Shown here piece by piece: positions 1 through 17,112 of a stretch of DNA of 24,811 nucleotides. This DNA comes from a virus (Duplodnaviria > Heunggongvirae > Uroviricota > Caudoviricetes). The notes under the pieces are model-generated. The model saw nothing but the letters and a program-made list of their open reading frames with translations, did not search any database and was not told the DNA's origin. The translations under genes were made by a program, and so were the position numbers. The stretch is taken from positions 1-24,811 of IMG/VR virus record IMGVR_UViG_2537561977_000030. One strand, 5' to 3'. The first letter of the stretch is position 1; each line of letters starts with the position of its first letter.

Positions 1-581
1 TTACAACTCAGCTTGAGTTTGAAGTTCCTCTACAGGGTGATAACGATAAATCGTCGATATACCGATATCGTAAATAATTGCCAACTGTTTCCTGCTATAG
101 CCATTTTTGATCAGCCTTGCTATTTGTTCATGTTGCTCTTTTGTCAGTTTCGGACGACGTCCACCAATACGCCCCTGTGCACGTGCTGCTGCCAGTCCGG
201 CCAGTGTACGCTCTACAATTAATTCACGTTCCATTTCGGCTAAAGCCCCCATGACGTGAAAAAGAAACGCCCCATGGGTGTTGATGTGTCAATGCTGTCC
301 GTCAGACTACGGAAATTAACACCTTTTTCCCGCAATTCCTCAATAAGCGTGATCAGGTGTTTCATACTTCTGCCCAGTCTGTCCAGCTTCCAGACAACCA
401 GCGTATCTCCTTCTGATAGCGTTCTGAGCAGTTTTTTCAATCCCGGTCTGGCTGATTTCGTTCCGCTGATTTTATCTTCAAAAATCAGTTCACATCCTGC
501 GCAGTTCAGTGCATTGCGTTGTAAATCCGTGTTCTGGTCATTTGTTGACACACGAATATAGCCAATTTGCATAAAAAACAT
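1..581 (-). pseudogene. Serine DNA invertase (Hin/Gin/Pin/Cin family) split by a 1-nt frameshift
   Basis: ORF 240-581 gives an N-terminal resolvase catalytic domain (IGYIRVSTNDQNTDLQRNAL...VVWKLDRLGRSMKHL...SLTDSIDTSTPMGRFFF). ORF 1-252 in another frame gives the C-terminal part (MGALAEMERELIVERTLAGLAAARAQGRIGGRRPKLT...). Adding one A to the A5 run at 259-263 restores a continuous ...MGRFFFHVMGALAEMERE... reading, as in Gin/Pin. Confidence 0.85.
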
Positions 582-586
582 CCTCT

Positions 587-1663
587 TTGTTTCGTGAAAA
601 ATACATAGTTGGTATAGGTAGGGATAAAGACGAAAACGTTGGTTTACAGGAAACGGTAAACAAGGCTGATAACGCTGTCCAAAAGACAGGCGATACCTTG
701 TCCGGTGGACTTACTTTTGAAAACGACTCAATCCTTGCCTGGATTCGGAATACTGACTGCGCGAAGATTGGATTTAAAAATGATGCCGACAGCGACACTG
801 ATTCATACATGTGGTTTGAAACAGGCGACAACGGCAATGAATATTTCAAATGGAGACACCGCATCATTGGCACCCGGCCTAAAGACCTGATGAATCTTAA
901 ATGGAATGCTTTGTCTGTTCTTGTTGAAGCCCTTTTCAGCAGTGAAGTGAAAATATCGACAGTCAATGCACTGAGGATATTTAATTCATCTTTTGGTGCC
1001 ATTTTTCGTCGTTCTGAAGAATGCCTGCATATCATCCCTACACGAGAGAATGAGGGAGAAAATGGTAATATAGGGCCATTACGCCCCTTTACGCTTAATC
1101 TCAGAACTGGCCGGATAAGCATGGGGCATGGTCTTGATGTTACAGGGGATATATTTGCAAACCGTTTTGCAATTAACAGTAGTACCGGCATGTGGATTCA
1201 TATGCGTGACCAGAATGTTATTTTGGGACGTAATGCGGTATCCACTGATGGTGCTCAGGCTTTGCTCCGTCAGGACCATGCCGACCGCAAATTTATGATT
1301 GGCGGTCTGGGAAATAAGCAATTTGGCATCTACATGATTAATAACTCAAGGACAGCCAATGGCACCGATGGTCAGGCGTACATGGATAATAACGGGAACT
1401 GGCTTTGCGGCTCGCAAGTTATTCCCGGCAACTATGGCAATTTTGATTCCAGATATGTGAAAGATGTTCGACTTGGTTCACAGCAATATTATGGAGTGAA
1501 CAACTGGCAAACATGGAATTTTCAGTGCCCGTCAGGCTATGTACTGACGGGGATTAACGTACAGGATACCGGAAAAAACTCTGCCGATAATATTGCAGGC
1601 GTTCATTACAGGCCAGTGCAAAAGTATATAAATGGCACTTGGTATAATGTGGCGAGTATTTAA
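587..1663 (+). CDS. Alternative tail-fibre C-terminal cassette (S'v-like), silent in this orientation; the exchangeable part is about 640-1663
   Basis: Translation contains [36 protein letters not shown]... and ends [11 protein letters not shown], paralleling the C-terminus of the minus-strand fibre (INGTWYNAGSI). It starts at the crossover site and has no constant N-terminal part of its own. Confidence 0.7.
627..652. other. hix/gix-like 26-bp recombination site A (invertase crossover site)
   Basis: Plus strand AAGACGAAAACG TT GGTTTACAGGAA. Its reverse complement TTCCTGTAAACC AA CGTTTTCGTCTT shares a 14-bp arm plus core with site B at 3702-3727, in inverted orientation. Confidence 0.7.
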
Positions 1664-1664
1664 T

Positions 1665-2192
1665 ATGATGCACTTAAAGAACATAAAAGCAGGTAATGCT
1701 AAAACAGTGGAGCAGTATGAGTTAACAAAGAAGCACGGAGTCATCTGGCTTTACTCTGAGGACGGAAAAAACTGGTATGAGGAAGTGAAGAACTTTCAGC
1801 CAGACACAATAAAGATTGTTTACGATGCAAATAATATTATTGTCGCCATCACCAAAGATGCCTCCACGCTTAACCCTGAAGGTTATAGCGTCGTTGAGGT
1901 TTCTGATATTACAGCTAATCGTCGTGCTGATGATTCCGGTAAGTGGATGTTTAAGGACGGAGCTGTGGTTAAACGGATTTATACGGCTGACGAACAGCAA
2001 CAACAGGCCGAATCACAAAAGGCCGCATTGCTTTCCGAAGCTGAATCAGTCATCCAGCCGCTGGAACGCGCTGTCAGGCTGAATATGGCGACGGACGAGG
2101 AACGCACACGACTGGAAGCATGGGAACGCTACAGTGTTCTGGTCAGCCGTGTGGATACGGCAAAGCCAGAATGGCCACAAAAGCCTGAGTAA
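1665..2192 (+). CDS. Tail-fibre assembly protein, alternative copy (U'-like)
   Basis: The N-terminus [23 protein letters not shown]...[13 protein letters not shown]...NFQPDT parallels the minus-strand U-like protein. ATG lies 2 nt after the S'v stop. Confidence 0.8.
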
Positions 2193-2197
2193 AAATT

Positions 2198-2217
2198 AAG
2201 GCCCGATATCGGGCCTT
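2198..2217. terminator. Bidirectional hairpin between convergent U' and U genes
   Basis: Perfect 20-bp palindrome AAGGCCCGATATCGGGCCTT, flanked by an A-run on one side and a T-rich stretch on the other, at the centre of the invertible segment. Confidence 0.5.
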
Positions 2218-2220
2218 GTT

Positions 2221-2754
2221 TCATTCTGGTTGTTCGGGAAACGTTACTGGCAGGCTGGAGGTGTCTGTGGATTCGACCTTCTGCGCATAGAGCATCCACT
2301 CGGTTAATTTTTGTTTATTCTCGTCGGAAATAATGCCCAGCCGTAGCTGTGAGTCCCACAGCTGGGTTTTATCCCTGACGAGCTGTAGCAGGCTTTGCTT
2401 TTCATTTTCCGCTTGTTGCCTCTGCTCTTCCCCGGTATAAGTTCGCTTTATCACTACGCCATCTTTGAACATCCATTTACCTGAAATATCAGCCCGGCGA
2501 TTTGCTGTAATATCAGGAACCTCAACGACGCTTGCGCCTTCCGGATTAATTGCTGAAACATCCTTTTCAATACAAATAATAACGCCGTTGTGGTCATAGA
2601 CCATTTTCAACGTATCAGGCTGAAAGTTCTTTTGTTCCTCATACCAGTTTTTCCCATCCTCTGTATAAAGCCATTTGATGTTAAATTGCTTTGTTAGCTG
2701 GTATTGCTCTTTTGTTTCAGGATTACCAGCAGAAATGTTTTTTAAGTGCATCAT
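2221..2754 (-). CDS. Tail-fibre assembly protein (Mu U / P2 G-like)
   Basis: 177-aa ORF MMHLKNISAGNPETKEQYQLTKQ...[13 protein letters not shown]...; start is 2 nt after the fibre stop. Confidence 0.85.
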   Translation of the reverse strand: MMHLKNISAGNPETKEQYQLTKQFNIKWLYTEDGKNWYEEQKNFQPDTLKMVYDHNGVIICIEKDVSAINPEGASVVEVPDITANRRADISGKWMFKDGVVIKRTYTGEEQRQQAENEKQSLLQLVRDKTQLWDSQLRLGIISDENKQKLTEWMLYAQKVESTDTSSLPVTFPEQPE

Positions 2755-2756
2755 CG

Positions 2757-4045
2757 TTAAATACTCCCCGCGTTATACCACGTCCCATTAATGCAATACT
2801 GAATTGGCCTTGCCTGTGTTGTATCAATTAATTCATCACGGTTTCCGTTAACTGAACCCGTAACGACATAACCTGACCTGTCAGACCATCCGGGACCATT
2901 CCATGTCTGAACAGATGACAGACCGCCCAGGCGAATACCTGTAATAAACCTTGAGTTACATTCTGCCTGCGTGTATGCACCAACATCTCCCGCTGATGGC
3001 TTACGTGTTGTGGTGTAGAATTCTGACCAGTCAGCCTCAAATCCATAACCATCACGCGCTGAACGATAAAAAATACCGCCGTTCTTATAATTCACACGGA
3101 ACTGTACGGCAGGGCAACTCCCCGTATTCATATTGAAGTGGAGTATTAATGCTGTTGCGCCTTTGATATCTGCATCATAAACACCGCTATTCCAGTTCCA
3201 GCCAACAGCTTTATCATTTGCAACCCTGCTTCCTGTTTGCCCTAAAGCAAATGCAGGCTGCTGGTTTTTCGTGTTGTAGTCTCGTCGCCAGCCAGGAGCG
3301 TAAGCATCACCATGATTAATATAGGTGAATTGAGCGTTAGTGATTCCGCCGCCGCTGGACGTGCCCGGCGTGGTAACGCGTATGGTCATTGCGCCACGAG
3401 TGCCAGTAACTTCCACAACAGCACCTGCAAGACAAATATTTCCGCAACCTGTATCTGTAATGACCTTATTATTTGCATAAGCCCATGAGCCTTTGCACAT
3501 CCAGTAAGGATGGTTAAATGCCCCCTGACTCTCCAGCCACGAAATAAATTGCGCAGTTGTCCAGACCTGACTATCGCCACCAATATCCACCCATGCGCTA
3601 TATGCGCGACAGGCACCAATATTTTTGGTGAAGGTATCTTTTCCTGGAATATCTGCGCCGTTCTGGTTTTTCTGTAATGCGCCAGAAGCCTGATTTATCG
3701 CTTCCTGTAAACCAAGGTTTTTGACAAACAGCGCAGGATCAGGAATATCTGCGCCGTTCTGGTCTTTAGCCAGCTTTTCCGCCAGCTTGTTCAGTACCGT
3801 AGTCGCAAAGTTTGGATCATTACCGAGAGCGTCAGCCAGCTCTTTAAGCGTATCCAGTGTCTCAGGGGCGCTGCCTGCAAGTGCCGCAAGTGCTTTGGCC
3901 ACAAACTCCGTTGTCGCCAGCTTTTTGCTGTTATCGCCATTTGCAGGTGTAGGTGCTGTTGGTGTGCCGGTGAATGCCGGACTGGCTTTCTGTGCGTACC
4001 GGGTATGCGGGTCTGCTGCCGCGATGTGTTTCGCAAGGTCAGCCC
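2757..4045 (-). pseudogene. Tail-fibre gene, C-terminal portion (constant part to 3716, variable Sv part 3715-2757), severed from its start by the IS
   Basis: Translation has tail-fibre hallmarks (GADLAKHIAAADPHTRYAQKASPAFTGTPTAPTPANGDNSKKLATTEFV...NLGLQE...INGTWYNAGSI). The ORF in the track (2757-4169) takes its first 41 codons from inside the IS. Confidence 0.8.
3702..3727. other. hix/gix-like 26-bp recombination site B inside the tail-fibre ORF
   Basis: TTCCTGTAAACC AA GGTTTTTGACAA closely resembles hixL (TTCTTGAAAACCAAGGTTTTTGATAA) and encodes N-L-G-L-Q-E on the minus strand. Confidence 0.75.
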
Positions 4046-5339
4046 CTGAGGAATCCCCAGAAAACAAGACAGGCATAGTGAGATGTGATCTAATTGATTG
4101 TGCTAACAATTTCAAGGAGATCACCACTATGCCTGCACGTTCATTATGCCAAAATTTCCTTAACAACATACTGGCCCCTTTGCATCTTTACCGTCAAAAA
4201 TCACTGATTGACGCAACTAATGCTGTAATAAATGGCGCTTCCCTCACACTTACCAGTATCGGGCGTCATTTAACCGGTACGGCATCAGTTAAAAACAAAA
4301 TAAAGCGGGTGGATCGACTGTTGGGGAATCGACATTTGCAAAATGAGGTTTCCACCATTTTTCAGCGAATTACCCAAAAGATTACGCGGGGAATGTCTCG
4401 TGTTGTGATACTCATTGACTGGAGTGCTTATCATGCCTCTCGTTTTCAGCTTTTGCGGGCAAGCCTGGCATGTGACGGGCGTTCTTTACCGTTGATGAGT
4501 TGTGTCGTTCCATCATCACAGACAGCGAATGCAGATGTACATGAGCGTTTTCTGGAATCGCTTGCTGAGTGCTTTTCCCCCGGGACTGATGTCATTGTTA
4601 TTACAGATGCCGGTTTTCAGGGGCGATGGTTCCAACAGCTCCGCTCCCGTGGCTGGACCTATATTTGCCGGGTACTGGGCAATCATTATTACAATGTTGG
4701 TAATGGCTGGGAAAAGGTGTCGGACTCAGGCACAAAAGCATCAACGACAGCAATTTATTTAGGTGAAGGCCTGCTGGGTCGAGATAAAAATGCACAACAT
4801 GAAGGGCATTTTTATCTTTATAAAAGTAAGCCTAAAGGTCGTAGATTTAAACGCTCGAAGGAAAGAGCAACCAGACCATCGGTGACGGCTAAAGCTCGTA
4901 CTGCCGGGAAATCACCATGGTTTATTTTCACAAACAGTACTGAGTTCTCGCCAAAACAGGTAATGAAATTATACAGCCGTAGAATGCAAATTGAGCAAAA
5001 TTTCAGGGATGAAAAAAATCCTCGCTGGGGATTTGGACTACGGTTTGGTGCCAGTCATTCATCCGGGCGGGTCACGGTATTGAGTCTGATCGCAACATTA
5101 GCCAGTATCATTATGTGGTTAAGCGGTTTCAGCCTGGAAAACAAAGGGATACATCATAAATATCAGGCAAATACAGTGAAGCACAGGCGAGTCATCTCGT
5201 TATTAAAACTGGCGGAGAATGTGATTCGACATTCTCCACTCATACTAAACACACTGTCACTTGACGCAGGGCTGAAAGTTCTACAGCAACGGTATACCAA
5301 TATGATAATGGTTTACTAAATTTTCTGGGGATCCCTCAG
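4046..5339 (+). mobile_element. IS4-family (IS10-group) insertion sequence, about 1.29 kb
   Basis: 19-bp terminal inverted repeats CTGAGGAATCCCCAGAAAA (4046-4064) and, reverse-complemented, CTGAGGGATCCCCAGAAAA (5321-5339). Flanked by direct repeat AGGTCAGCCC (4036-4045 and 5340-5349). One transposase ORF. Confidence 0.85.
4129..5319 (+). CDS. IS10-like DDE transposase (396 aa)
   Basis: ATG at 4129 preceded by AAGGAGA. Translation aligns with remembered IS10 transposase blocks (KRVDRLLGNRHL..., IVITDAGF..., YSRRMQIEQNFRDEK...). The upstream part of track ORF 3721-5319 is a read-in artefact. Confidence 0.85.
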   Translation: MPARSLCQNFLNNILAPLHLYRQKSLIDATNAVINGASLTLTSIGRHLTGTASVKNKIKRVDRLLGNRHLQNEVSTIFQRITQKITRGMSRVVILIDWSAYHASRFQLLRASLACDGRSLPLMSCVVPSSQTANADVHERFLESLAECFSPGTDVIVITDAGFQGRWFQQLRSRGWTYICRVLGNHYYNVGNGWEKVSDSGTKASTTAIYLGEGLLGRDKNAQHEGHFYLYKSKPKGRRFKRSKERATRPSVTAKARTAGKSPWFIFTNSTEFSPKQVMKLYSRRMQIEQNFRDEKNPRWGFGLRFGASHSSGRVTVLSLIATLASIIMWLSGFSLENKGIHHKYQANTVKHRRVISLLKLAENVIRHSPLILNTLSLDAGLKVLQQRYTNMIMVY

Positions 5340-5506
5340 AGGTCAGCCCCGCCTTTTTCAACCTGTTGCTTCAGGTACAGCGTGCGGCTGGCCAGTTGTT
5401 TACCCTGACGGTTAGAAATTCCGTCAGGTCCGCCCAGAACGGGGTCAGAGACCTCAATCTGGTAGATGCCGTTTTCCCACTGCGGGGTTTCGGGTAGATT
5501 TGCCAT
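5340..5506 (-). pseudogene. Tail-fibre gene, N-terminal fragment (about 55 codons) separated by the IS
   Basis: ATG at 5506 follows the gpI-like stop by 2 nt and reads MANLPETPQWENGIYQIEVSDPVLGGPDGISNRQGKQLASRTLYLKQQVEKGGAD. Removing 4046-5349 rejoins it in frame with 2757-4045. Confidence 0.75.
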
Positions 5507-5508
5507 AA

Positions 5509-6087
5509 TTAACTGCTCCCGTGGTTGTAACTACCGTTATAACGGGTAGTACTGTTGTAGCGAATGGCGACAGACTGATATTCCAGACTTGCCAGATGAC
5601 AGCGAGCCGGAGCAAAGGCAGCAAGCGTCTGACGTAACAGCGCCGCCTGATCATTAGTGATGGGCTGTTGAAGGATGACCCGATAGACAGCCCAGGCTTG
5701 TGCATCGCCGTGGACGAAAAGTCCGTTGTAACTGTGTTTACCGTCGTAGCCGATCTGCCCTGTCCCTTCAATCAGCTCCACTTCGCCGAAGCCAAAACGG
5801 CGGATAATTTCCCGGATTGACCACGGTGTTCCTTTATAGCGGTGTAGCTCGATAGCGGATTTGATAAGCATGCGGCGTACATCGTCAGATTCCGCCAGTT
5901 CCCAGCCATCGCCGAACAGCGAGAACTGCTCGCCCAGCCATGGCAGCGCGGAACTGTCGACGATATCGACGAGACAGACCATCAGTACGCTCAGGTCGAT
6001 GTTATCCAGCCGTCCGGCCAGTCTTCCCAGCGTTCTGAGACTGATATCACCCTCAAGCGGTGGCGGGAGTTGTAGCGCCTCAGCCAT
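5509..6087 (-). CDS. Baseplate/tail protein (P2 gpI / Mu gp48-like)
   Basis: 192-aa ORF immediately upstream of the fibre gene and overlapping the J-like gene end; position and size match. Confidence 0.7.
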   Translation of the reverse strand: MAEALQLPPPLEGDISLRTLGRLAGRLDNIDLSVLMVCLVDIVDSSALPWLGEQFSLFGDGWELAESDDVRRMLIKSAIELHRYKGTPWSIREIIRRFGFGEVELIEGTGQIGYDGKHSYNGLFVHGDAQAWAVYRVILQQPITNDQAALLRQTLAAFAPARCHLASLEYQSVAIRYNSTTRYNGSYNHGSS

Positions 6088-7183
6088 CGGACACCCCTGT
6101 CATGTTAAGAGTGATCGCCGTACAGTTTGCCCATTCGTTTTCTGCAACCACCCGCAGTGCCGGTGTCACCAGTTCAACCTGGTACACCCCGGAAACGGAC
6201 AATGCACTGATAATCTGGCTGGGGACAATATCGCGCCCCAGCGTGGCGGCACGTGATGCCACCCAGTTCTGTATGGCGCTGTTAGCGTTGTCCTTTACCG
6301 ACCTTGCATCCTGATCACGATAGATCGTAATCCTGGCTTCAATGGTGTAATCCACCTGAACAGGTGTTTTAGCCCGCACGGTATCAGTGAGTGGTCTGAC
6401 TTTTTCGTCAGAACAGAAACTCTCTACCAGAGTGAGGATACCGCTGTCCGGCAGACCAGTGCTGAGCAGCGGATACAGCTCGACAGTGCCGGGAGCGGGA
6501 GAAAGAACAGCGACGTCAACAATGCTGGGATGCGCCCCCATAGCATGAAAACGGTATGCACCACGGCTTCCGGCATTGGTGAATGACTCCGGGGCCAGCC
6601 TGATACGCTCCCGGAGCCGGTCATTGTCTTCCTGCTCTGAACCGCCAGAGCTGGCCGTCAGATTGGTCACCAGCAGGTCAACGTTATCAATCTCATCAAG
6701 CAACTGACTGACCTGCGCAGGTTGCCAGCCGTTGCCAGAGGTACCCGGTTCGGTACAGGTGGCCGGGGCATTGACCAGCAGCAATCCGGCCTTCAGCACC
6801 ACATCTGTATCGGTGGCAAAAATAATACTGTCGGAAGCGCTGACGCGGGTGCCTGCCGGGATCAGCACATCAATGGCCAGTGCCTCATCCACAGAGAACT
6901 GAAGTGTGGTGGTGGCAGGCTGCGCGGCAAGGCGGTATACACCAACCAGTTCTCCGAGGTAATCAATCATTGGCTCCCGGGAAAAGGCGACCAGATTCAG
7001 CTTCGCCGCCTCCTGTACCGCCACCCTGACCAGCATTTCGCGATAGGCCCACAGGTCTATCAGCAGACGTTCTGCCTGTGCCGGATACAACGTTTTGCCG
7101 GTATCCGCTTCATACTTCGCAATCATTTCTGCCGTGATTTTATCGGCATCGCGTTCAATAAAATCGGGTTCTGTCAGCGCCAT
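6080..7183 (-). CDS. Baseplate assembly protein J (P2 gpJ / Mu gp47-like)
   Basis: 367-aa ORF; position between W-like and I-like genes; J-family-like sequence. Confidence 0.75.
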   Translation of the reverse strand: MALTEPDFIERDADKITAEMIAKYEADTGKTLYPAQAERLLIDLWAYREMLVRVAVQEAAKLNLVAFSREPMIDYLGELVGVYRLAAQPATTTLQFSVDEALAIDVLIPAGTRVSASDSIIFATDTDVVLKAGLLLVNAPATCTEPGTSGNGWQPAQVSQLLDEIDNVDLLVTNLTASSGGSEQEDNDRLRERIRLAPESFTNAGSRGAYRFHAMGAHPSIVDVAVLSPAPGTVELYPLLSTGLPDSGILTLVESFCSDEKVRPLTDTVRAKTPVQVDYTIEARITIYRDQDARSVKDNANSAIQNWVASRAATLGRDIVPSQIISALSVSGVYQVELVTPALRVVAENEWANCTAITLNMTGVSDG

Positions 7184-7521
7184 AGCAGTTCCTGAGTACG
7201 GGGTTGTCCGTCTGAGCCTTTCCAGCTCACCCGGAGCGTAAGATGTTCGCCGTCGACGGCGGGTTTAACCGACATAAGCTGGCAGCGGGGTTCCCAGCGC
7301 CTGATGGCATCGACGGATTCGCGAACCACATGCGTAATGGCCCGGTCGACAGGCCAGTCGATATAAAGGTGCAGATTACTGCCGAACTCCGGGCGATGCG
7401 GGTCGCTGCCGCGGGGAGTCCGCAGGATGATCTGAATGGACTGCCGGATATCATCCAGCCCCCGGACGATTTCGCCGGGAGCCTGCAGAGCCGGTTGCCA
7501 GAATACTGAGGTCGTTTTCAT
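7174..7521 (-). CDS. Baseplate wedge protein W (GPW/gp25 family)
   Basis: 115 aa, with the ILRTPRGS...WEPR pattern typical of P2 gpW-like proteins. Confidence 0.75.
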   Translation of the reverse strand: MKTTSVFWQPALQAPGEIVRGLDDIRQSIQIILRTPRGSDPHRPEFGSNLHLYIDWPVDRAITHVVRESVDAIRRWEPRCQLMSVKPAVDGEHLTLRVSWKGSDGQPRTQELLWR

Positions 7522-7553
7522 GGGGGGCAGTATTGCCCCCGGAAGGGAACGCC

Positions 7554-7574
7554 GATATTAAAGGCGTTTAAGAA
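7554..7574 (-). promoter_or_regulatory. Conserved 21-bp motif, copy A (candidate activator-dependent late promoter)
   Basis: GATATTAAAGGCGTTTAAGAA on the plus strand is 19/21 identical to 13346-13366. On the minus strand it reads TTCTTAAACGCCTTTAATATC, containing a TAATAT -10-like hexamer with no good -35. Confidence 0.4.
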
Positions 7575-7577
7575 ATC

Positions 7578-8090
7578 TCAGTGCGAGTGATGATTAGAGT
7601 TCTGACCATCAGACAGCATACTACCTGTCGAGTGGGCATTACCGTTAATTTCAAGGTCGCCATTCACCGTGGTGGTGTCAGCAGTCAAATCAATGGTTTT
7701 CCCCTTCAGGCTGATACCCACTGCAACCTCGATCACCACATGCTCAATACCTCCTTTGACCGTCAGCGTATGGGTCGCGCGGTTATAACTGAACTCCGCG
7801 CCATCCGCGTATTTCGTGCCCCGGACGTTTTTATCACTGAACGGCGGTTTATCGACGTCTGAGTACACCGCGCCCAGAATGACACCATCCTCGCCGTTGG
7901 CATCGAGCAGCACCTCAACCTGCTCCCCCACGTCAGGGAGCCAGTAATCCTTGTTATCCTGGGTATTGCGCTGCAGCACGTTAAGCCAGTTTGTGCGCAG
8001 GTTATCGCATTCAGGCAGACGAACGCGGGCCTGAACCCTGTCGGCATCAACGGCACTGACCGTACCGACCTGACGGGTGACACCTGTCAT
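7578..8090 (-). CDS. Baseplate spike/assembly protein V (P2 gpV / Mu gp45-like)
   Basis: 170-aa ORF with V-family-like sequence; position between D-like and W-like genes. Confidence 0.7.
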   Translation of the reverse strand: MTGVTRQVGTVSAVDADRVQARVRLPECDNLRTNWLNVLQRNTQDNKDYWLPDVGEQVEVLLDANGEDGVILGAVYSDVDKPPFSDKNVRGTKYADGAEFSYNRATHTLTVKGGIEHVVIEVAVGISLKGKTIDLTADTTTVNGDLEINGNAHSTGSMLSDGQNSNHHSH

Positions 8091-8106
8091 TTTTTCTTCT
8101 CCTTAA

Positions 8107-9240
8107 TCACCGTCGATGTACTGCCATCCGGGTGATAAACCGTGAGTTTCTGAGTTTTTGTTTTTTCCCTCTTGTGACTGGCCCCCGTGCCACTTCCAGC
8201 TCGGTGGTGTAGCCGCTGTTACGCTCAAACGCATGGCGGGCAGTGGTTATGAGCCATGGCCCGGATAACTGTCCAAAGCCCACCAGTTCAATTTTGTTGC
8301 CTGCTGTCAGTTGAGGCGTTCCCGTCAGCGTCAGGGAGCCGTTCTGCTGATATTCGTTATGTCTGGCCAGTGCTGAATCCGCTTTAATCCGGGCACTGTC
8401 CGGGTCGCTGACGCGGCTGTTAACTTTAAGTGAGTCAGCGCTGGTAACCTTACCGCCTTTGAGCTTTTTGTCGCTTTCACGGGTACCACCATCAGCTTCG
8501 TAGACGATCAGTTTTTTACTGCTGCTTTTCTGGTGTTTTACCTTTGCAGATTTATAGACCCGGTTGATGGTGTCACGCAGGGAAAAGCGGGCCACATCCT
8601 GCGGTTTTAACTGCCTGACCGGCTCCTGACTGCGCAATGTGGCCAGATGAGAAAAAATCAACTGGTCACTGACCACTTTCACTGCATAACCATACCCGCT
8701 GGCCAGCCGGCGCAGAAAACCCACGTCGGTTTCAGCATACTGGGTCACCCGGTCGATTCTGATGGACTCAATGCTGCCCACCAGTTTCAGTCGGTGCTTT
8801 CTGGCAATCCGCCCCGCAACAGCTGCCAGCGTGGTGTTCTCAAAACCACGGCTGGATTTAGTCCGCAGAGCACTGTTAACCGAGGTGGCCACCCCACGGA
8901 TAGCGACAACGGACGCGGGCGAACTCACTTCGATCTCGTCTATTGAGAATGTACCGCAGGACAGCAGTTTCTCGCCCTGATAACCCATTTTCAGCGTCAG
9001 CGTGTCACCCTTGCCCGGATACCACTTATCCAGCCAGCGGCCATCGGTGTCGTCCAGCTCCACCTCAATGGTATCGGACTCATTTTTGATGTTATCGCTC
9101 CAGACCACACGGGTGACATAAGGCGCGATATCAGAGGTGATATTTTTCTGCAGATACCACAGCGTGAACACCGGCGTCAGCACCTCGCTGACGCCGGTTA
9201 ACGCTGATGTGGCTTGCGCAGTGCTGTTTATCTCAGCCAT
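8107..9240 (-). CDS. Tail/baseplate hub protein (P2 gpD / Mu gp44-like)
   Basis: 377 aa; C-terminal ...GNKIELVGFGQLSGPWLITTARHAFERNSGYTTELEV resembles the gpD family; position after X and U. Confidence 0.7.
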   Translation of the reverse strand: MAEINSTAQATSALTGVSEVLTPVFTLWYLQKNITSDIAPYVTRVVWSDNIKNESDTIEVELDDTDGRWLDKWYPGKGDTLTLKMGYQGEKLLSCGTFSIDEIEVSSPASVVAIRGVATSVNSALRTKSSRGFENTTLAAVAGRIARKHRLKLVGSIESIRIDRVTQYAETDVGFLRRLASGYGYAVKVVSDQLIFSHLATLRSQEPVRQLKPQDVARFSLRDTINRVYKSAKVKHQKSSSKKLIVYEADGGTRESDKKLKGGKVTSADSLKVNSRVSDPDSARIKADSALARHNEYQQNGSLTLTGTPQLTAGNKIELVGFGQLSGPWLITTARHAFERNSGYTTELEVARGPVTRGKKQKLRNSRFITRMAVHRR

Positions 9241-9443
9241 GGGGCAATATCCTCTTCTGTGCGGGCATCTTCAGCCTCAATAACCGGGATCAGTAACAAC
9301 ACCCCGGAGGGCAGCACCGGCGTAATGGCCACGTGCGGATTGGCGGCAATAATCCGGGGATAGCCCAGCGGGTCACCGTAGTACTGCCATGCCAGCGAAT
9401 CCCAGCGCTCTCCGTCACGGGTAATATGTTCAAGAAACATCAC
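9228..9443 (-). CDS. Tail protein X (small, LysM-like)
   Basis: 71-aa ORF between the U-like and D-like genes, overlapping both. Confidence 0.6.
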   Translation of the reverse strand: MMFLEHITRDGERWDSLAWQYYGDPLGYPRIIAANPHVAITPVLPSGVLLLIPVIEAEDARTEEDIAPWLR

Positions 9444-10324
9444 ACACTCCTCGTCAGTATTCTGGCGGCCATTGCACTTAATCCCGGAGACATGCGGTTG
9501 AATGCTGTGCCAGCGGCGTTAAGCTGCCCGGAAACGGTATCCAGAGCACCTGCAATATTTCTTTTGTCCACACCACTCAGCGCAGACTGCGCTTGCTGTA
9601 CATACGTGGCTGCCTCACTGGCTGTTCTGGCCAGACTGATGGCTTCGGGCATGGATTCAGAGAGTGCATTAAATGCCGGAACACTTTTCCCCAGAGCTCC
9701 GGATATATTACCCAGTCCGCTCATCAGTCCCGGCACACGGGTCAGTGCGACAACGGGGTTACCCTTCATTTTCTGCGCCACCCGAACAGCACTGATAGTG
9801 GTCTGGAGTACAGACTGCGCCTGTTTCGCACAGTTGACGCCGTTACGGACGAACTGCGCCACCCCGGAAGGCGATGGAACAGCACCAGATACGGCCCCGG
9901 CACCGGGAACCTGCCTGCGTATTGCCGGCGGTTGCAGAGGATTTTTCGGGTCACCGGTGTATTCCCGGAGAGACACGGTGGCACTGACAGCCAGCACGTT
10001 ACCGGTGCTGTCTGTCTGCTCACTGGTTGCGGTCACATCGGTAATCACGAACCAGCCGCGATAGTCACCGTTGCCGAAGACCAGTGCCAGTGCCTGATGG
10101 GCCTTCATGGCTGTTCGCACTCTCGCCAGCTCCACGTCGGGCACACAATAATGCTGATGGAAGACCAGGCTTATCTGGATTTCGTCCAGCCTGTCGCCGA
10201 CGAACTGCAGGCCGGGTTTACCCCCGATGCGGGCATGCTCCGCATAATCGACGCCGGACGTGGCCTCGAAGCCGTCCCAGTAGGTAATCAGCTCAAACTC
10301 AATATCACCCAGTACGGCAAACAT
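9440..10324 (-). CDS. Tail protein (P2 gpU-like / Mu N DNA-circulation N-terminal type)
   Basis: 294 aa; N-terminal FAVLGDIEFEL...RIGGKPGLQFVGDRLDEIQISL... resembles the gpU family. Start shares a base with the tape-measure stop. Confidence 0.55.
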   Translation of the reverse strand: MFAVLGDIEFELITYWDGFEATSGVDYAEHARIGGKPGLQFVGDRLDEIQISLVFHQHYCVPDVELARVRTAMKAHQALALVFGNGDYRGWFVITDVTATSEQTDSTGNVLAVSATVSLREYTGDPKNPLQPPAIRRQVPGAGAVSGAVPSPSGVAQFVRNGVNCAKQAQSVLQTTISAVRVAQKMKGNPVVALTRVPGLMSGLGNISGALGKSVPAFNALSESMPEAISLARTASEAATYVQQAQSALSGVDKRNIAGALDTVSGQLNAAGTAFNRMSPGLSAMAARILTRSV

Positions 10325-12801
10325 CAGCGGTACTCCTTACGTTGTTTCTGAGCCAGCAGACGCTCCAGCATTTTTTCCAGCTCATGCAGGCTCATATTCA
10401 GGGCTCCAGTCAGCCCGGCAGGCGCTGCGGTTTCCTTACCATTGAGGAAAAACTGAGGATTAAAGCTGACCTGGATACCGCCAGACGCTCCACCGCCAGT
10501 TGCAGTTGCGCCACGGCCTGAATATCCGGCAGCCATGATTTCCGGCGACGGGATACGGGGAACATCCGGTGTCATTTCAGCGGCCAGGCGCTGCCCGGCC
10601 AGTGCAGCAAGCGGAGTGGTTCGCTGCAGGCCAATGGCGGCACCCTGCGCGATATTGTCACCAAAGCCCATAAACACGCGACTCGGCGAATGGATGCCCA
10701 GCTTTTCGCTGAACCAGTCACTGATGCTGTCACCCATTCCGGTTACGCTGGTTTTGAGCGACTCCCATTTGTTTCTGATGCCATTTATCAGCCCGTCGAT
10801 AAGATGACCACCGAAGTCGGTGAACTTCGCCGGCAGATCAACGCCGAGATATTTCAGCGCAGCCGCAAAGGCTTTATAAAGCAGCCCCGCCGGAGACCAG
10901 TTAACCAGCAGTTTACCAGTTCCCGCGATGCCGCCGTTAAAGGCTTCCTGAATGTCAGCCCAGCGCTGTTTAAACCAGCTACTGACTGCGCCCCAGTTGT
11001 GGTAGATAAGGTAAGCTGCTGCCGCAACGGCGGTGATAACGAGACCGATGGGATTCATCATCAGCGCCCGGCCAATCCAGAGAACGGCGCGTGCAGCAAT
11101 CATAAAACCGCGAACGAGGCTGCCCGTCAGAACTTTGCTGAGTTTCAGTCCTCCGCGGGTCAGTCGGCTGAATCCAGTGACAAGCCAGCGTAATTTGCCA
11201 CCTTCTCCGAGTGCGGTAGTCAGTCGACGCCAGTTGGTCCGGAGTAAAACAGCAGTTTTCCAGACGTTCACAAAGGGGGAAATAAGAAGATTCAGCCCCA
11301 GTTTGAGGCCAATAGTCGCTATCTTAATCGCAAGGAGCGCACTGATGAGCTTAAAAGCCCCACTGACAAATTGCGGGTGAGTCGCCACCCAGTGTTTTGC
11401 CCCCTGAATGAGTGGGATCAACTCCTGTGCCAGAGAAATAAAAGAGGGGGCGAGCTGATCGCCCAGCGTAATAGCCAGATCGCGACTGCTGACCATAAGC
11501 GCTTTAGTGGCTTCAGAGGGAGATTTCAGCCGCTGATCGTAAGCACTGGCAAGCAAATCGTTATCCGCAGCCCTGAGGGCACCGGCACGAATCTCGCGGT
11601 ACCTGTCCATGTTGGCCAGCATCGGGCGGATAAACGCCATGACCTGCATATCCGCGAACATATCGCCCAGACCAAAGTTTTTTGCCAGAGCCTGAAGTGC
11701 CTCATCTCTTGCCGTATCATTTTTTATTTTCATGGCGGATTTGAACCCGGCCAGAGCTTCGGGGCTTTTTGTATTGAGGTAACGCTCTATAACACTCAAC
11801 ATCCCTTCAATCGGAGAGATCCCCGCAGCCTTATAACTCGCAATAGATCCCTGCAAATCAATACCCAGGTCAGCAAACTGTTTCTGAGTATCGCGGGCAA
11901 AAATTTTGGTAAGAAAGTTTTTAAAGTTATTGGCCGCTTCGTCGGTGGAGCCCGCACCGATTTTTGCTATCTGGAGACTGGCCCCGATTTCAGCAACAGC
12001 CTCTTTTCCACTGGCAACGCCCGCCATCATTGGGGCCAGGGACTGCATCCATTTGACCTGATCCGGAATTTCAAATGACCCCTGATCACCGGCATAAGCC
12101 ATAATATTCTGGACGGCACCAAAATCTCTGGCGGCACCTTTCAGGGAGTTTTGCCAGACAGCGGCCACTTTTGCCCAGTCCTGAGATGACGTGCGTGTTG
12201 CCGTTGCCGCGCGGGCAATATCCGGCATCAGAAAACCGATATCTGACAAGTTATCAATATTGTCGCTGATGAGCGAACCCACCGCCTCCTGCAGCTCATC
12301 CTGATACTGATTGTATTTAAGTGCCCAGCCTTTTATCTGTCCGGCAAGTGCATCCCGCGTTTTATTGTCATATTTTGCGGTGATCGACATATCAATCATT
12401 TTGTCCTGAAAAGACATGGACTGCTGAACGGCCGGGGAAACCGTATGATAAACAGTCTGTGTCATGCCATACGCTTCAAGTCCCTGACCATACAGCGCCA
12501 TGCGGTTAGCTTTCAGCGCATCACTGGTCGCTGATGCCGCTGACAGGCGGCGCTGCTGGCGCTCAATTTGCTCCATGGTGCGGCTTACCCGCAGCAGCTC
12601 GCTGTTGAGACGCTGCATCCGGGAAGAACCCAGTTGACCATAACGTTCTGTTGCACGGGTTAAAGCGTTCTGACGTTCCTGCAGGCGGCGTGAGGTATCG
12701 CTCAGGGAATCAAGCGCACGGCGGGTACCGCTCATTGCAGAACGGAATGTGCTGCCAATCATCCCGCCGATAACAACGCCGACTGAAAACTGTCCCGACA
12801 T
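10324..12801 (-). CDS. Tail tape measure protein
   Basis: 825-aa ORF with an alpha-helical, Ala/Gly-rich central region and hydrophobic segments, placed between chaperone and baseplate genes. Confidence 0.85.
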   Translation of the reverse strand: MSGQFSVGVVIGGMIGSTFRSAMSGTRRALDSLSDTSRRLQERQNALTRATERYGQLGSSRMQRLNSELLRVSRTMEQIERQQRRLSAASATSDALKANRMALYGQGLEAYGMTQTVYHTVSPAVQQSMSFQDKMIDMSITAKYDNKTRDALAGQIKGWALKYNQYQDELQEAVGSLISDNIDNLSDIGFLMPDIARAATATRTSSQDWAKVAAVWQNSLKGAARDFGAVQNIMAYAGDQGSFEIPDQVKWMQSLAPMMAGVASGKEAVAEIGASLQIAKIGAGSTDEAANNFKNFLTKIFARDTQKQFADLGIDLQGSIASYKAAGISPIEGMLSVIERYLNTKSPEALAGFKSAMKIKNDTARDEALQALAKNFGLGDMFADMQVMAFIRPMLANMDRYREIRAGALRAADNDLLASAYDQRLKSPSEATKALMVSSRDLAITLGDQLAPSFISLAQELIPLIQGAKHWVATHPQFVSGAFKLISALLAIKIATIGLKLGLNLLISPFVNVWKTAVLLRTNWRRLTTALGEGGKLRWLVTGFSRLTRGGLKLSKVLTGSLVRGFMIAARAVLWIGRALMMNPIGLVITAVAAAAYLIYHNWGAVSSWFKQRWADIQEAFNGGIAGTGKLLVNWSPAGLLYKAFAAALKYLGVDLPAKFTDFGGHLIDGLINGIRNKWESLKTSVTGMGDSISDWFSEKLGIHSPSRVFMGFGDNIAQGAAIGLQRTTPLAALAGQRLAAEMTPDVPRIPSPEIMAAGYSGRGATATGGGASGGIQVSFNPQFFLNGKETAAPAGLTGALNMSLHELEKMLERLLAQKQRKEYR

Positions 12802-12876
12802 AGTGGTTAACCTCCGGGGAAGGTGAAAAGACGTGGGGGGATAACGCAGAACAGCCGCTGCTGGCGGCTGTCTGTA

Positions 12877-13134
12877 CTATGATTTGTCGCCGTACTCGCT
12901 TCTGATTTGCTCTTCAGCCTGCTCCAGCCACATCTCCAGATCGTCAGTATCGAGGGCATCAATCTCCCCCGGCTGAAACCTGAACCACCTTGCCAGCAGC
13001 CCCTGCGCCTGCGTCAGCGCCTTCGTTGCTCTCACCCATCCCCGTGACGAGCTGAAATCGTTTCTGCAACTGCAGGTAATCAGCCAGGTCCATATTGTCG
13101 AGATCTTCCGGGAGAAGACCAGTACTGCGGGCAA
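12877..13134 (-). CDS. Frameshift-extension ORF of the tail assembly chaperone (E'-like)
   Basis: Overlaps the chaperone ORF in the +1 (equivalently -2) frame and ends just before the tape measure, the position conserved for chaperone frameshift products. Confidence 0.5.
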   Translation of the reverse strand: MPAVLVFSRKISTIWTWLITCSCRNDFSSSRGWVRATKALTQAQGLLARWFRFQPGEIDALDTDDLEMWLEQAEEQIRSEYGDKS

Positions 13135-13294
13135 TCAGCGGTTCGTCCCAGTCAGCCGGGTTTTTGCTGATTTTACGTACTTGCTTCAGGTCTTTGACCG
13201 TCAGACGTTTCAGTTCAACCAGCTCAATTCTGGTGCCTGCAGCAGTGGTGAAGGGATAAGACAGCGTAAAAATATCGGATGAGGTCTGTGACAT
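12959..13294 (-). CDS. Tail assembly chaperone (P2 gpE / Mu gp41-like)
   Basis: 111-aa acidic ORF directly upstream of the tape measure; AGGAG 7 nt before the ATG. Confidence 0.65.
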   Translation of the reverse strand: MSQTSSDIFTLSYPFTTAAGTRIELVELKRLTVKDLKQVRKISKNPADWDEPLIARSTGLLPEDLDNMDLADYLQLQKRFQLVTGMGESNEGADAGAGAAGKVVQVSAGGD

Positions 13295-13345
13295 GATGTG
13301 CTCCTGTGTAAGTTCAGGGCAGTATGTCGGGAGAAGCGCGTGACG

Positions 13346-13366
13346 GATATTAAAGGAGATTAAGAA
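13346..13366 (-). promoter_or_regulatory. Conserved 21-bp motif, copy B (candidate late promoter upstream of the chaperone gene)
   Basis: GATATTAAAGGAGATTAAGAA; on the minus strand it follows the hairpin at 13371-13384 and precedes the chaperone ATG by about 50 nt. Confidence 0.4.
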
Positions 13367-13370
13367 GAAG

Positions 13371-13384
13371 GGGCCGGAGCCCCT
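13371..13384 (-). terminator. Hairpin followed by a T-rich tract on the minus strand, downstream of the 73-aa ORF
   Basis: GGGGCCGGAGCCCC has a 5-bp GC stem and is followed on the minus strand by TTCTTCTT. Confidence 0.4.
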
Positions 13385-13390
13385 GTGATG

Positions 13391-13612
13391 TCAGCAAGTG
13401 CGAAAACCCTTGCAGTTACGCAGGAAAGCGATGAGAAGCGTCTTTCCCTCCGCTTTGCCTGTGCCGGAGAACCAGTGGTCGGGCGGCTCCCATGCTTCAA
13501 TCAAATCGGCCAGTTTGCGGGCCTTTGAACGTGTGCAGTCAATCGGGTCATTGGTTTTACGGGTGTTACCCCCCGGAATATCAAGGAGGGTAAACCACGT
13601 ACCATTTGACAT
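13391..13612 (-). CDS. Hypothetical 73-aa protein between tail tube and chaperone (possible moron)
   Basis: ORF only; weak ribosome-binding site; has its own downstream hairpin; sits where this tail-module layout normally has no gene. Confidence 0.35.
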   Translation of the reverse strand: MSNGTWFTLLDIPGGNTRKTNDPIDCTRSKARKLADLIEAWEPPDHWFSGTGKAEGKTLLIAFLRNCKGFRTC

Positions 13613-13663
13613 GCCCGGTGACGCACAGCGCCCCCCCTTTGTCAGTCAGTTCAACGCTCACCG

Positions 13664-14185
13664 TCAGCCCCCGATATTGATACGGTAGTCAGTCAGCTGG
13701 TCAACGCCACCGACCCGGAAGATGTTGGCCAGATAGTCCAGTTGCAGCAGCTCTTCACCATCCAGTACCTGTCTGATATACGTGCAGGTGAAGCTACTGG
13801 AGAACTCGGCGTTCTCGTGCTGTTTGAACGTCCCCAGCGGGTTCTTCTTGAACATAATCGTCAGGAAGGTGACCAGCGGGATTTCGTCGATCAGCCCCTG
13901 CGAACTGTAGCGCTGGACGCTTGAGCGACACTGCAGCGCCAGCGACCTGTACGGGTTCGCGGCAGACAGCATCGCATCGCGGTAAAAGCTGTTCCATTTG
14001 ATTTCGCCTTCCAGTTTGTCAAAACCAGCCGGGAGTTCCACCTTACCCACCATCCCCAGTGCCTTGTGTTCCTGCATAATCATGGAGACATCGGGGAGTT
14101 TAACTTCCTCAGCCCGTCCCAGCAGGTTAGTACCATCCAGATAGATGTTGGCATTCGTGATTCGGTTTATCTCAATCTTTGACAT
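13664..14185 (-). CDS. Tail tube protein (Mu gpM / P2 FII-like)
   Basis: 173-aa ORF immediately after the sheath gene; start shares a base with the sheath stop. Confidence 0.8.
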   Translation of the reverse strand: MSKIEINRITNANIYLDGTNLLGRAEEVKLPDVSMIMQEHKALGMVGKVELPAGFDKLEGEIKWNSFYRDAMLSAANPYRSLALQCRSSVQRYSSQGLIDEIPLVTFLTIMFKKNPLGTFKQHENAEFSSSFTCTYIRQVLDGEELLQLDYLANIFRVGGVDQLTDYRINIGG

Positions 14186-15618: not shown

Positions 15619-15856
15619 CCTCCGTTTTCACCTCGCTGTCACCGCCGTTCCTGCGCTTTGGTGACTGCACAGCCGGTGTGCCGGCGGGTTTAGTTTCTTC
15701 AGATACCGGCGTCAGATGCTTCAGCGCCACCAGTACCTTCACGTAGTCATGCTCCTCCGGCAGGGAAACAGTCTTCCCCGGCCAGAGCAGGATTTCGGTT
15801 CCGTCCGACAGCGTGACGCCGCTGGCCGGGCCGGAATAGCGGTATTCTTTCATCAC
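15602..15856 (-). CDS. Hypothetical small protein (head-tail joining region)
   Basis: 84-aa ORF overlapping its neighbours in operon fashion. Confidence 0.5.
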   Translation of the reverse strand: MMKEYRYSGPASGVTLSDGTEILLWPGKTVSLPEEHDYVKVLVALKHLTPVSEETKPAGTPAVQSPKRRNGGDSEVKTEDAHVS

Positions 15857-16317
15857 TCGCTTTCCTCATAGTTCACTTCGGTTAACAGCGGGCCGGACGG
15901 TAAATCGCTGTCTTCGATAAAGACGCTTTCAGTCGCGAAGTCGAGGGCGTATTGCCAAAGCCCCCTGACTTCACCGATAAACACCTCGCGGGTCAGCCAG
16001 ATACGGCGGCGGCAGCCGGGCGGAGTGTGGCCACCGAGAATGCGGCGGACAGCATCCAGGACATTAATCGCCCCTTTTTTACCGTTGAGCTGGCGGAAGA
16101 CCACCGTGACGCAGAGCTGGATAGTCTGAGGCTGGATCACCGCACCGGTATCATCCGGCCTGTCGAAACGCGATCCTGCATAGCTCAGCAGCAACGCCCC
16201 GACAGAATGATTGAGGCGATATTCGGACGGCTTTTCCGGGAAGTACTCAACCTGCAGCTGAGGCAGCTTCTCGCGTAACCGGGCCAGTACCGCATCAAGG
16301 ACGGGCAGAACATTCAT
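15853..16317 (-). CDS. Mu gp37-like protein (DUF1834-type)
   Basis: 154-aa ORF in the position of Mu gp37, overlapping neighbours. Confidence 0.55.
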   Translation of the reverse strand: MNVLPVLDAVLARLREKLPQLQVEYFPEKPSEYRLNHSVGALLLSYAGSRFDRPDDTGAVIQPQTIQLCVTVVFRQLNGKKGAINVLDAVRRILGGHTPPGCRRRIWLTREVFIGEVRGLWQYALDFATESVFIEDSDLPSGPLLTEVNYEESE

Positions 16318-16763: not shown

Positions 16764-16764
16764 G

Positions 16765-17103
16765 TCACACCCCGCGCAGGATACGAATGACGTCGCCTTC
16801 ACCCCCGGCTTCATCAAGTGCAATACCACAGGATTTACCGTCGCCGGACTGCGGCACGGCTCTGGCCTGAGCATCTGACTGAACAGCCACACCACTGCTG
16901 ACCGCAGCACCGGCCTCAACAGCAATAATGCCCAGAACGCTAACCGGCGTACTGTCGCCGGTAACAGCATCCACTTCGGCAACCCCGAGCGCTGCGGCAC
17001 CGGCTTTACAGGGGGTATTATCTGCCCCGACAAAACGCTGCTGTGCCAGTTCTGCCCCTGCCGTTACGGTTGTGATCAGAATGACCTGCTGAGTGGTTCC
17101 CAT
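16765..17103 (-). CDS. Small Ala/Gly/Val-rich head protein (DUF2190-like, possible decoration protein)
   Basis: 112 aa; strong Shine-Dalgarno TAAGGAGG 4 nt before the ATG; composition typical of DUF2190-type proteins. Confidence 0.5.
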   Translation of the reverse strand: MGTTQQVILITTVTAGAELAQQRFVGADNTPCKAGAAALGVAEVDAVTGDSTPVSVLGIIAVEAGAAVSSGVAVQSDAQARAVPQSGDGKSCGIALDEAGGEGDVIRILRGV

Positions 17104-17112
17104 AACGCCTCC

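Follow-up and report, generated by a model that had tools for sequence, protein, structure and literature searches.

The prophage examined here lies in a window of 24,811 nucleotides (the whole stretch of viral DNA that was analyzed, IMG/VR record IMGVR_UViG_2537561977_000030), and its tail fiber gene is broken by an insertion sequence (IS). The question that this locus raises is whether the break is a plain insertion or whether the element brings something further to the fiber gene. We conclude that it almost certainly reflects a single transposition of ISEc60 into the fiber gene, i.e., plain insertional inactivation that took place once, in an ancestor, and has been inherited since, with no programmed function. 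A first-pass annotation made from the sequence alone had also described an insertion, and that interpretation is supported overall, with small corrections. We found no evidence that contradicts an insertion.

Anatomy of the insertion

The IS occupies positions 4046 to 5339 (plus strand), antisense to the fiber gene. As the first-pass annotation had noted, it is 1,294 bp long and has imperfect 19-bp terminal inverted repeats, which match at 18 of 19 positions: CTGAGGAATCCCCAGAAAA on the left (4046 to 4064, plus strand), which is the transposase-start side and lacks a GATC, and CTGAGGGATCCCCAGAAAA on the right (5321 to 5339, minus strand, given as the reverse complement), in which a GATC is present. 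The transposase gene (4129 to 5319, plus strand) is intact and encodes 396 amino acids that include the DDE and YREK motifs.

The flanking direct repeat, previously put at 9 to 10 bp, is an exact 10-bp target-site duplication, AGGTCAGCCC, whose left (4036 to 4045) and right (5340 to 5349) copies abut the two IS ends. By chance alone, an exact 10-mer repeat placed in this way would be expected with a probability of about 1e-6. Because the first base of the IS (C) is also the base that follows the right copy, the repeat can be read as 11 nucleotides. The same 1,294-bp ends occur in six other, independent ISEc60 copies with different 10-bp duplications, and AGGTCAGCCC is present in single copy at the empty sites of related prophages, as in L001. 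Thus, the repeat lies outside the IS, and the reservation that it might belong to the IS termini is excluded.

The 5' fragment of the fiber gene (5336 to 5506, minus strand) encodes native residues 1 to 56, followed by a TGA that is created at the IS junction. The 3' fragment (2757 to 4045, minus strand) consists of the remaining constant part (4045 to 3722) and the variable part that is currently joined to it, and it matches PHROG tail fiber families. The duplicated bases are nucleotides 158 to 167 of the gene, or codons 53 to 56 (G-A-D-L), in agreement with an earlier placement of the split after about codon 53. Deletion of 4046 to 5349 (the IS and one repeat copy) yields an uninterrupted open reading frame (ORF) of 1,446 nucleotides; the in-frame rejoining proposed earlier therefore stands, but the product has 481 amino acids (482 codons with the stop) and not 483 codons. 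A simple IS with a target-site duplication, whose excision restores the frame, is the clean insertion that had been proposed.

The restored 481-amino-acid fiber may have been functional, as suggested by its open frame and by homologues of each half that are intact. In complete Escherichia coli genomes, the halves were found only apart from each other, and none of those genomes has this exact pairing of constant and variable parts in a single intact gene. The 56-amino-acid and 436- or 470-amino-acid ORFs called by gene finders at this locus are the two halves of a single pseudogene.

Identity of the element

The IS is 100% identical over its 1,294 bp to copies annotated as “IS4-like element ISEc60 family transposase”; the name rests on NCBI PGAP labels of identical copies in E. 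coli genomes and plasmids rather than on an ISfinder entry. The transposase scores well above the cutoffs of Pfam PF01609 (DDE_Tnp_1; 74 bits, cutoff 23) and the NCBIfam IS4 model NF033591 (360.5 bits, cutoff 152). When it was aligned with IS10A and ISSfl1, the IS4 signature, taken as the catalytic D, D, and E plus Y-(2)-R-(3)-E-(6)-K, was found conserved in DWS, TDAGF, and YsrRMQIEqnFRDeK. The short terminal inverted repeats and the fixed length of the target duplication are also those of the IS4 family. By sequence, then, the element is ISEc60, an already catalogued member of that family.

The copies labeled ISEc60 have the same ends, the same 396-amino-acid transposase, and a 10-bp duplication, and the copy in the window differs from them solely in its insertion site. 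Other intact ISEc60 insertions had 10-bp duplications in six of six cases, each different from the one at this site and with identical element boundaries, which brings the count to 7/7 sites with the window copy included. That ISEc60 makes 10-bp duplications at GC-flanked targets, with G|G(G/C)N6YC|C as a candidate target preference, adds a minor fact to IS annotation. Some E. coli chromosomes carry 36 to 38 copies of ISEc60. Among GTDB representatives, an exact 40-mer of the left IS end had no match, and the 19-mer IS end was found in at least 120 stretches across many Enterobacterales, which supplied material for the comparisons of duplication and structure. The closest named relative besides ISEc60 is ISSfl1 of the Shigella flexneri virulence plasmid (1,301 bp; ends CTGAGGAATCCCCAGAAAA and CTGAGGGATCCCCACAAAA), with a transposase 51.6% identical to that of ISEc60. 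It is a distinct element by sequence, and a duplication of 9 bp flanks the copy that was examined.

The assignment of the element to the IS10 family in the first-pass annotation holds for the termini. The first 13 nucleotides of the left end match the IS10A end at 12 positions, as do those of the other terminus; the ends are of the CTGA..ATCCCC type and share the asymmetry of AATCCCC on the transposase-proximal side and GATCCCC, a Dam site, at the distal end only. IS10 and ISEc60 also have in common a DDE transposase of the IS4 family that contains a YREK motif (that of ISEc60 being matched by the NCBIfam IS4 model), a strong stem-loop that spans the start of the transposase gene where RNA-OUT lies in IS10, and a roughly symmetric, GC-flanked target. 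However, the transposase is only 36% identical to that of IS10A, the element is 34 bp shorter (1,294 versus 1,328 bp), and its duplication is 10 bp, whereas that of IS10 is 9 bp. Furthermore, the Rfam RNA-OUT model (RF00240), which scored 85.9 bits on the IS10A control, had no match on ISEc60, and the window contains neither a tet determinant nor a second IS copy. Duplication length, transposase divergence, alignment of the ends, and the RNA-OUT result refute an identity with IS10 itself or a Tn10 remnant, to which we assign next to no probability.

A conserved stem-loop at the transposase start

A conserved stem-loop (4069 to 4135) covers both the ribosome-binding site of the transposase (GGAG, 4116 to 4119) and its ATG (4129), a position equal to that of the RNA-OUT/fold-back region of IS10. 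It has z-scores of −5.65 and −5.43, and covariation was seen across 12 relatives. An Rfam scan of positions 3900 to 5500 gave only matches at chance level and none to RF00240 at E ≤ 1, possibly because the stem-loop is too diverged for that model. G-U pairs are slightly more numerous on the plus strand, which favors a role in mRNA fold-back over one as an antisense RNA.

Within the IS4 family, elements of the ISEc60/ISSfl1 group are common across Enterobacterales and have this stem-loop at their transposase-proximal end. Whether the covarying structure of about 67 nucleotides is the functional counterpart of the IS10 RNA-OUT/fold-back region, and thus an effectively undescribed RNA family, is evenly balanced in our estimation.

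The invertible fiber segment

About 325 bp downstream of the IS in the direction of the fiber gene, a gix-like inversion site (3670 to 3721) lies inside the gene, with a core, TTCCTGTAAACCAAGGTTTTTGACAA, that extends to 3725. Its partner (633 to 684) is inverted relative to it. The segment between them holds the tail fiber assembly chaperone of the currently joined variant (2221 to 2754, minus strand; phrog_136, 1.2e-74), an alternative, promoterless C-terminal fiber segment (587 to 1663, plus strand; phrog_454 and phrog_6859), and an alternative chaperone (1632 to 2192, plus strand; phrog_136, 2.7e-80). Adjacent to it is a Gin/Hin-type DNA invertase gene (1 to 581, minus strand; phrog_125) that is frameshifted in this assembly. 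The frameshift falls at a homopolymer that reads A5 at about position 258 here and A6 in sister assemblies, whose intact alleles encode PF00239 (Resolvase) and PF02796 (HTH_7) domains. The frameshift was considered as a sign of further decay, a reading that we downgraded because it is a one-base homopolymer difference confined to this draft assembly.

The segment from 633 to 3721 has one orientation in the window, L139, and L140 and the opposite one in sister assembly L141, with breakpoints that fall in the two sites; in L141, the alternative C-terminal segment is joined to the constant part. The locus therefore has what defines a Gin/Hin-type switch, namely, an adjacent serine invertase, inverted sites of which one is intragenic, and both orientations observed. 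It resembles the Gin/Cin/Pin segments of Mu, P1, e14, and p15B in having a serine invertase beside the invertible segment, two alternative fiber tips with one chaperone apiece, crossover sites of the gix/hix pattern, and a constant N-terminal part that the segment does not include. Unlike in those systems, an IS here breaks that constant part, and the invertase frame is shifted in this assembly.

These positions bear out the earlier claims that the insertion lies in the constant region and that both fiber variants are disconnected from their start, since the IS is upstream of the crossover site and the shared 5' end is lost to either variant. With the constant part broken, switching would no longer alter an expressed product, and the fiber switch of this prophage is probably decoupled from expression.

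Expression of the gene fragments

Residues 1 to 52, which are lost from the 3' fragment, align with the beginning of several PHROG tail fiber profiles and thus represent the conserved N terminus. In P2- and Mu-type fibers, the N-terminal end anchors the fiber to the baseplate. We infer a loss of fiber expression together with polarity, although some expression of a truncated fiber may persist.

IS10 can switch on neighboring genes from pOUT, and a similar outward promoter at the left end of ISEc60 could transcribe the fiber fragment and its chaperone independently of the late operon, with an in-frame start giving a truncated or N-terminally replaced fiber. Several features are consistent with this: an ORF of 470 amino acids (4169 to 2757) in the fiber frame has its ATG within the IS, a 436-amino-acid product with a start near the IS end is called in other assemblies, and an extended −10-like TGgCATAAT, found by eye, faces outward on the minus strand (4151 to 4143), directly upstream of the stem-loop. 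However, a promoter scan found no sigma-70-like site at the left IS end, and neither the 470- nor the 436-amino-acid ORF has a Shine-Dalgarno sequence before its start. The open stretch of 41 codons has a probability of about 14% of occurring by chance. Read on the minus strand, the stem-loop precedes a U-rich tract, an arrangement more suggestive of a terminator. Furthermore, the product would lack the conserved N terminus, with its general role as the baseplate anchor, in a prophage that is incapable of making particles. Such activation of the fiber fragment is therefore very improbable, and plain inactivation is the reading that we retain.

Empty site, inheritance, and age of the insertion

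The first-pass annotation had suggested a comparison with relatives that lack the IS at this site. The rejoined 60-bp joint has an exact match in the prophage of E. coli A33, where the query gap of 1,304 bp corresponds to the IS plus one repeat copy, and the uninterrupted 120-bp site is present in 42 of 5,426 complete E. coli genomes. None of those 5,426 genomes has ISEc60 at this insertion site. The exact 56-amino-acid junction product was found in 11 contigs, among them 4 NCBI assemblies.

The window, which ADUP01000053.1 matches at 100% identity, comes from an older draft assembly (GCA_000188815.2) and shows three indel differences from sister assemblies, all of them one-base homopolymer shortenings that suggest sequencing errors. 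The short runs are A5 at about 258, C5 at 4576, and T5 at 8154; with A6 and T6, the invertase and gpD would be intact, and with C6, this IS copy would be dead. An assembler could conceivably have placed a repeated IS in the fiber gene. However, the complete chromosome CP065611.1 has the identical junction and duplication, and so do the NCTC assembly UFYN01, JARKNK01, and assemblies made independently from several sequencing runs. Misassembly, moreover, does not yield a perfect duplication of 10 bp, the usual length for ISEc60. An artifact is thus exceedingly unlikely. Collapse of IS copies in the draft assembly could have made the IS sequence itself a consensus; at 4576, inside the IS, one more C is present in two of the sister assemblies.

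Since the same insertion is found in at least four assemblies, one of which has the segment flipped, it has been inherited clonally. The earlier description of the insertion as recent fits the perfect duplication and an IS that is 100% identical to other copies, but it needs qualification, as at least four assemblies and several read sets carry the insertion in fixed form and the invertible segment has since been flipped in one of them. In the sequence of events that we propose, one copy of ISEc60 would have transposed by a cut-and-paste DDE mechanism into fiber codons 53 to 56, duplicating 10 bp of target. This would have cut off the shared N-terminal part after residue 56 and separated the rest of the constant part, both tips, and both chaperones from the start codon and the late-operon transcript. 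The event probably happened once, in the ancestor of a small ISEc60-rich clone of the E. coli/Shigella type, and has been passed on since.

State of the prophage

Positions 5409 to 21108 are 89 to 98% identical to phage PhiKM at the nucleotide level, with collinear late genes, which places the prophage with Bcepmuvirus. It is not a complete genome of that group, as transposase, terminase, and lysis genes belong to about 13.8 kb that is absent at the junction at 21100 to 21108. The portal lacks its N terminus, and a head gene has a 570-bp deletion, with most of the gene lost. The prophage is a BcepMu-like remnant (Mu type, with a P2-type tail) that is unable to make particles, and these large deletions mean that it is dead independently of the IS. 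The lesion in the fiber gene is real, as the first-pass annotation had it, but it is just one of several that affect terminase, lysis, transposition, and head functions; we infer the order of these lesions. The insertion is ordinary prophage decay, an already known kind of event, and matters little beyond annotation. It can be used as a clonal marker for the small ISEc60-rich lineage of the E. coli/Shigella type. It is only the gene neighborhood aes-hemH-adk that points to E. coli/Shigella as the host.

Identity of the element and its target duplication

Positions 4046 to 5339 of the window, inside the tail fiber gene of a Mu-like prophage, are occupied by a 1294-bp insertion sequence that starts with CTGAGGAATCCCCAGAAAA and ends with the reverse complement of CTGAGGGATCCCCAGAAAA, its termini matching at 18 of 19 positions. 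A single open reading frame (4129 to 5319, plus strand, 396 amino acids) fills the element. Directly outside both ends lie copies of AGGTCAGCCC (4036 to 4045 and 5340 to 5349); the odds of an exact 10-mer repeat falling at this precise position by chance are about one in a million. The repeat finder gave 11 nt at a spacing of 1304 bp, base 11 being the first base of the element at the left and a flanking C at the right. The first-pass annotation, which described a 1294-bp element with imperfect inverted repeats and a flanking direct repeat, is thus borne out, and these features demonstrate that the element arrived by a simple transposition in which codons 53 to 56 were cut with a 10-bp stagger.

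The transposase matches Pfam DDE_Tnp_1 (74 bits; cutoff, 23) and the NCBIfam IS4 model NF033591 (360.5 bits; cutoff, 152). Over its full length of 1294 bp, the element is 100% identical to copies carried by Escherichia coli chromosomes and plasmids and annotated by NCBI as “IS4-like element ISEc60 family transposase,” and ISEc60 occupies 36 to 38 places in each of two chromosomes. For direct comparison, one IS10A copy and one ISSfl1 copy were retrieved. In an alignment of the three, the DDE residues and YREK signature coincide. Transposase identities to ISEc60 (tblastn) are 51.6% for ISSfl1 and 36% for IS10A/ISVsa5. IS10A is 1328 bp long, with ends (CTGAAGAATCCCC and CTGAAGGATCCCC) that are each 12/13 identical to those of ISEc60, and the two elements have the same asymmetry, with GATC at the distal end and none at the transposase-proximal end. 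Judged by its sequence, the element is ISEc60 and not IS10, because the similarity of the ends is not matched by that of the transposases; the earlier label of IS10 family is fair for the ends alone.

The duplication length also sets the two elements apart. Ten places with an identical transposase were retrieved, six of which are intact, independent insertions (L129, L132, L133, L135, L137, and L138; ISEc60 at 1418 to 2711 in each). All six keep the same 1294-bp boundaries, and each has a different exact 10-bp flanking repeat (GGGAATTCTC, GGAAATTCTC, GGGATAATTC, GCGAGTTCCC, GCTTTGACCC, and GGGATCACTC), so the repeat does not belong to the termini, a possibility that the first-pass annotation had raised against its own reading. 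The duplication is therefore 10 bp at seven of seven sites, whereas that of IS10 is 9 bp. All seven target sites fit a loose symmetric consensus, G(G/C)N6(Y)C, with G before it and C after it. More distant relatives yielded three duplications of 10 bp and one of 9 bp (L036), and the ISSfl1 copy (L146) has a 9-bp duplication. At another locus (L130, 1418 to 4015; the same place as L131, 114 to 2711), two ISEc60 copies lie head to tail with 10 bp between them (GGGATTTACC), bordered on both sides by GGGATTTTCC; this pair could be a tandem dimer or an insertion beside an existing copy.

The interrupted fiber gene and its surroundings

When the element and one copy of the repeat are removed, the minus strand reads open from 5506 to 2757; this 1446-nt frame encodes 481 amino acids and, counting the stop, has 482 codons. 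The in-frame rejoining proposed previously therefore holds, although the length of 483 codons was one too many. The restored protein matches PHROG tail fiber families over its entire length. The duplicated bases are nucleotides 158 to 167 of the gene, in codons 53 to 56 (Gly-Ala-Asp-Leu), and the upstream fragment encodes exactly native residues 1 to 56 followed by a TGA that spans the junction, its T being the final base of the duplication and its other two bases the start of the element. The variable 1017 nt is ~94% identical in other fiber genes, such as one in E. coli W, and the constant-plus-variable combination of the window was found as one gene in no complete E. coli genome searched; this separation is the usual mosaicism of fiber genes.

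Downstream of the fiber gene are a tail fiber assembly chaperone (2221 to 2754, minus strand), a second chaperone (1632 to 2192, plus strand), a promoterless alternative fiber C terminus (587 to 1663, plus strand), and a serine DNA invertase (1 to 581, minus strand). Inverted sites with a gix/hix-like core (TTCCTGTAAACCAAGGTTTTTGACAA) lie at 633 to 684 and 3670 to 3721. Since the element is 324 bp upstream of the crossover site in gene orientation, it lies in the constant part of the gene, as first annotated. Upstream are P2-type baseplate genes I, J, W, V, D, and X, followed by tape measure, tube, and sheath genes. The nearest phage is Escherichia phage PhiKM of the genus Bcepmuvirus, at 89 to 98% identity.

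Uninterrupted sites and inheritance of the insertion

Comparison with relatives lacking the element, a check that the first-pass annotation had suggested, recovers the uninterrupted site. The element is present at this fiber site in none of the complete E. coli genome records searched, and in many records the flanks align separately, together spanning exactly 1088 bp, equal to the query span of 2392 bp less 1304 bp. The 60-bp rejoined joint occurs with zero mismatches in E. coli A33, within an annotated “phage tail protein” gene, and a 120-bp probe for the rejoined site has full-length matches in 42 of 5426 complete E. coli genomes. The switch region of the A33 prophage (L001, 1348 to 6494) is far more complex than the two-state switch of the window: short segments labeled “phage tail protein,” six to seven of them and pointing both ways, stand beside a recombinase, in what looks like a multiple-inversion (Min/shufflon-like) fiber system.

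The insertion is inherited and not private. The exact 56-amino-acid junction product is found on 11 contigs, some from four NCBI assemblies and the others from several assembled public read sets. Over 13.5 kb, the window matches ADUP01000053.1 of GCA_000188815.2 at 100% identity, which is therefore its source. The same element, site, and duplication are found in two sister assemblies, CP065611.1 and UFYN01000002.1, which differ from the window outside the invertible segment by four SNPs and three one-base homopolymer indels. In UFYN01000002.1, segment 633 to 3721 is inverted, so that the broken constant part now adjoins the alternative tip. The sole mismatches near its ends, at 638 and 3716, are partner positions of the imperfect sites, which places the crossover within the site core. 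At least one inversion must therefore have followed the insertion, with the invertase active or supplied in trans. This later inversion, together with the shared insertion, rules out misassembly.

The indels are A5 versus A6 at 258 (invertase), C5 versus C6 at 4576 (transposase), and T5 versus T6 at 8154 (end of gpD), the shorter run always being in the window. Those at 250 to 262 and 8150 to 8158 leave the window with a frameshifted invertase and a changed, shortened gpD C terminus, which may be sequencing errors of the older draft. At 4576, C5 is canonical, being found in all other ISEc60 copies, and C6 frameshifts the transposase in both sister assemblies (L139 and L141); this leaves two readings, decay of the copy in the sisters or a draft sequence that is a consensus of collapsed copies. 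Within ~500 bp of the alternative fiber tip (1135 to 1639), the window and the sisters differ by 25 SNPs, compared with a divergence of ~0.05% elsewhere, in what looks like a recombination or gene conversion patch.

Expected effects on expression

The late transcript would enter the element antisense to the transposase gene, and translation would stop after fiber residue 56, so no expression is expected from the remaining fiber, either tip, or either chaperone. A terminator-like hairpin and T-run on the minus strand (5239 to 5212) is a consensus match only. Expression of a truncated fiber from an outward promoter in the element is highly improbable: an ATG in the fiber frame at 4169 could start it and a motif resembling an extended −10 element, spotted by eye, could drive it, but a promoter scan gave no support, and the absent N terminus is the conserved start of the fiber in the PHROG matches. 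A known insertion sequence has entered a gene of a known kind, and the prophage around it is decaying. The first interpretation of the insertion is supported, with minor corrections.

The prophage is a remnant, and the fiber lesion is one among several. Relative to PhiKM, ~570 bp (190 codons) is missing from a 317-amino-acid head gene (junction, 17287 to 17298), leaving a 123-amino-acid open reading frame. At a second junction (21100 to 21108; 9-bp overlap), the portal gene breaks off midway and early-region sequence from beyond gam follows, with ~13.8 kb absent, including the portal N terminus, both terminase subunits, lysis genes, the methylase, transposase A and B, and gam; the Pfam Mu portal profile is matched only at positions 116 to 336. 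A 197-amino-acid open reading frame beyond the Mor gene, reaching the window edge (24218 to 24811, plus strand), has no Pfam match. Mor and GemA are retained.

A conserved stem-loop at the transposase start

Positions 4069 to 4135 form a strong hairpin on either strand (plus, −40 kcal/mol, z −5.65; minus, −46.4 kcal/mol, z −5.43) that encloses the GGAG ribosome-binding site and the ATG of the transposase; it has no bearing on the verdict about the insertion. The hairpin is kept in 12 distinct relatives spread over many Enterobacterales: pairing holds in 96% of cells, and compensatory changes occur in five pairs. This result is reached by 0 of 500 shuffles, and slid registers drop to 32 to 43% paired. 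Pairing is a little better on the plus strand (240 of 250 cells) than on the minus strand (231 of 250). The Rfam RNA-OUT model (RF00240) matches the IS10A control at the equivalent position (85.9 bits) and has no match in ISEc60 or ISSfl1. The ISEc60 hairpin looks like a counterpart of the fold-back/RNA-OUT control region of IS10.
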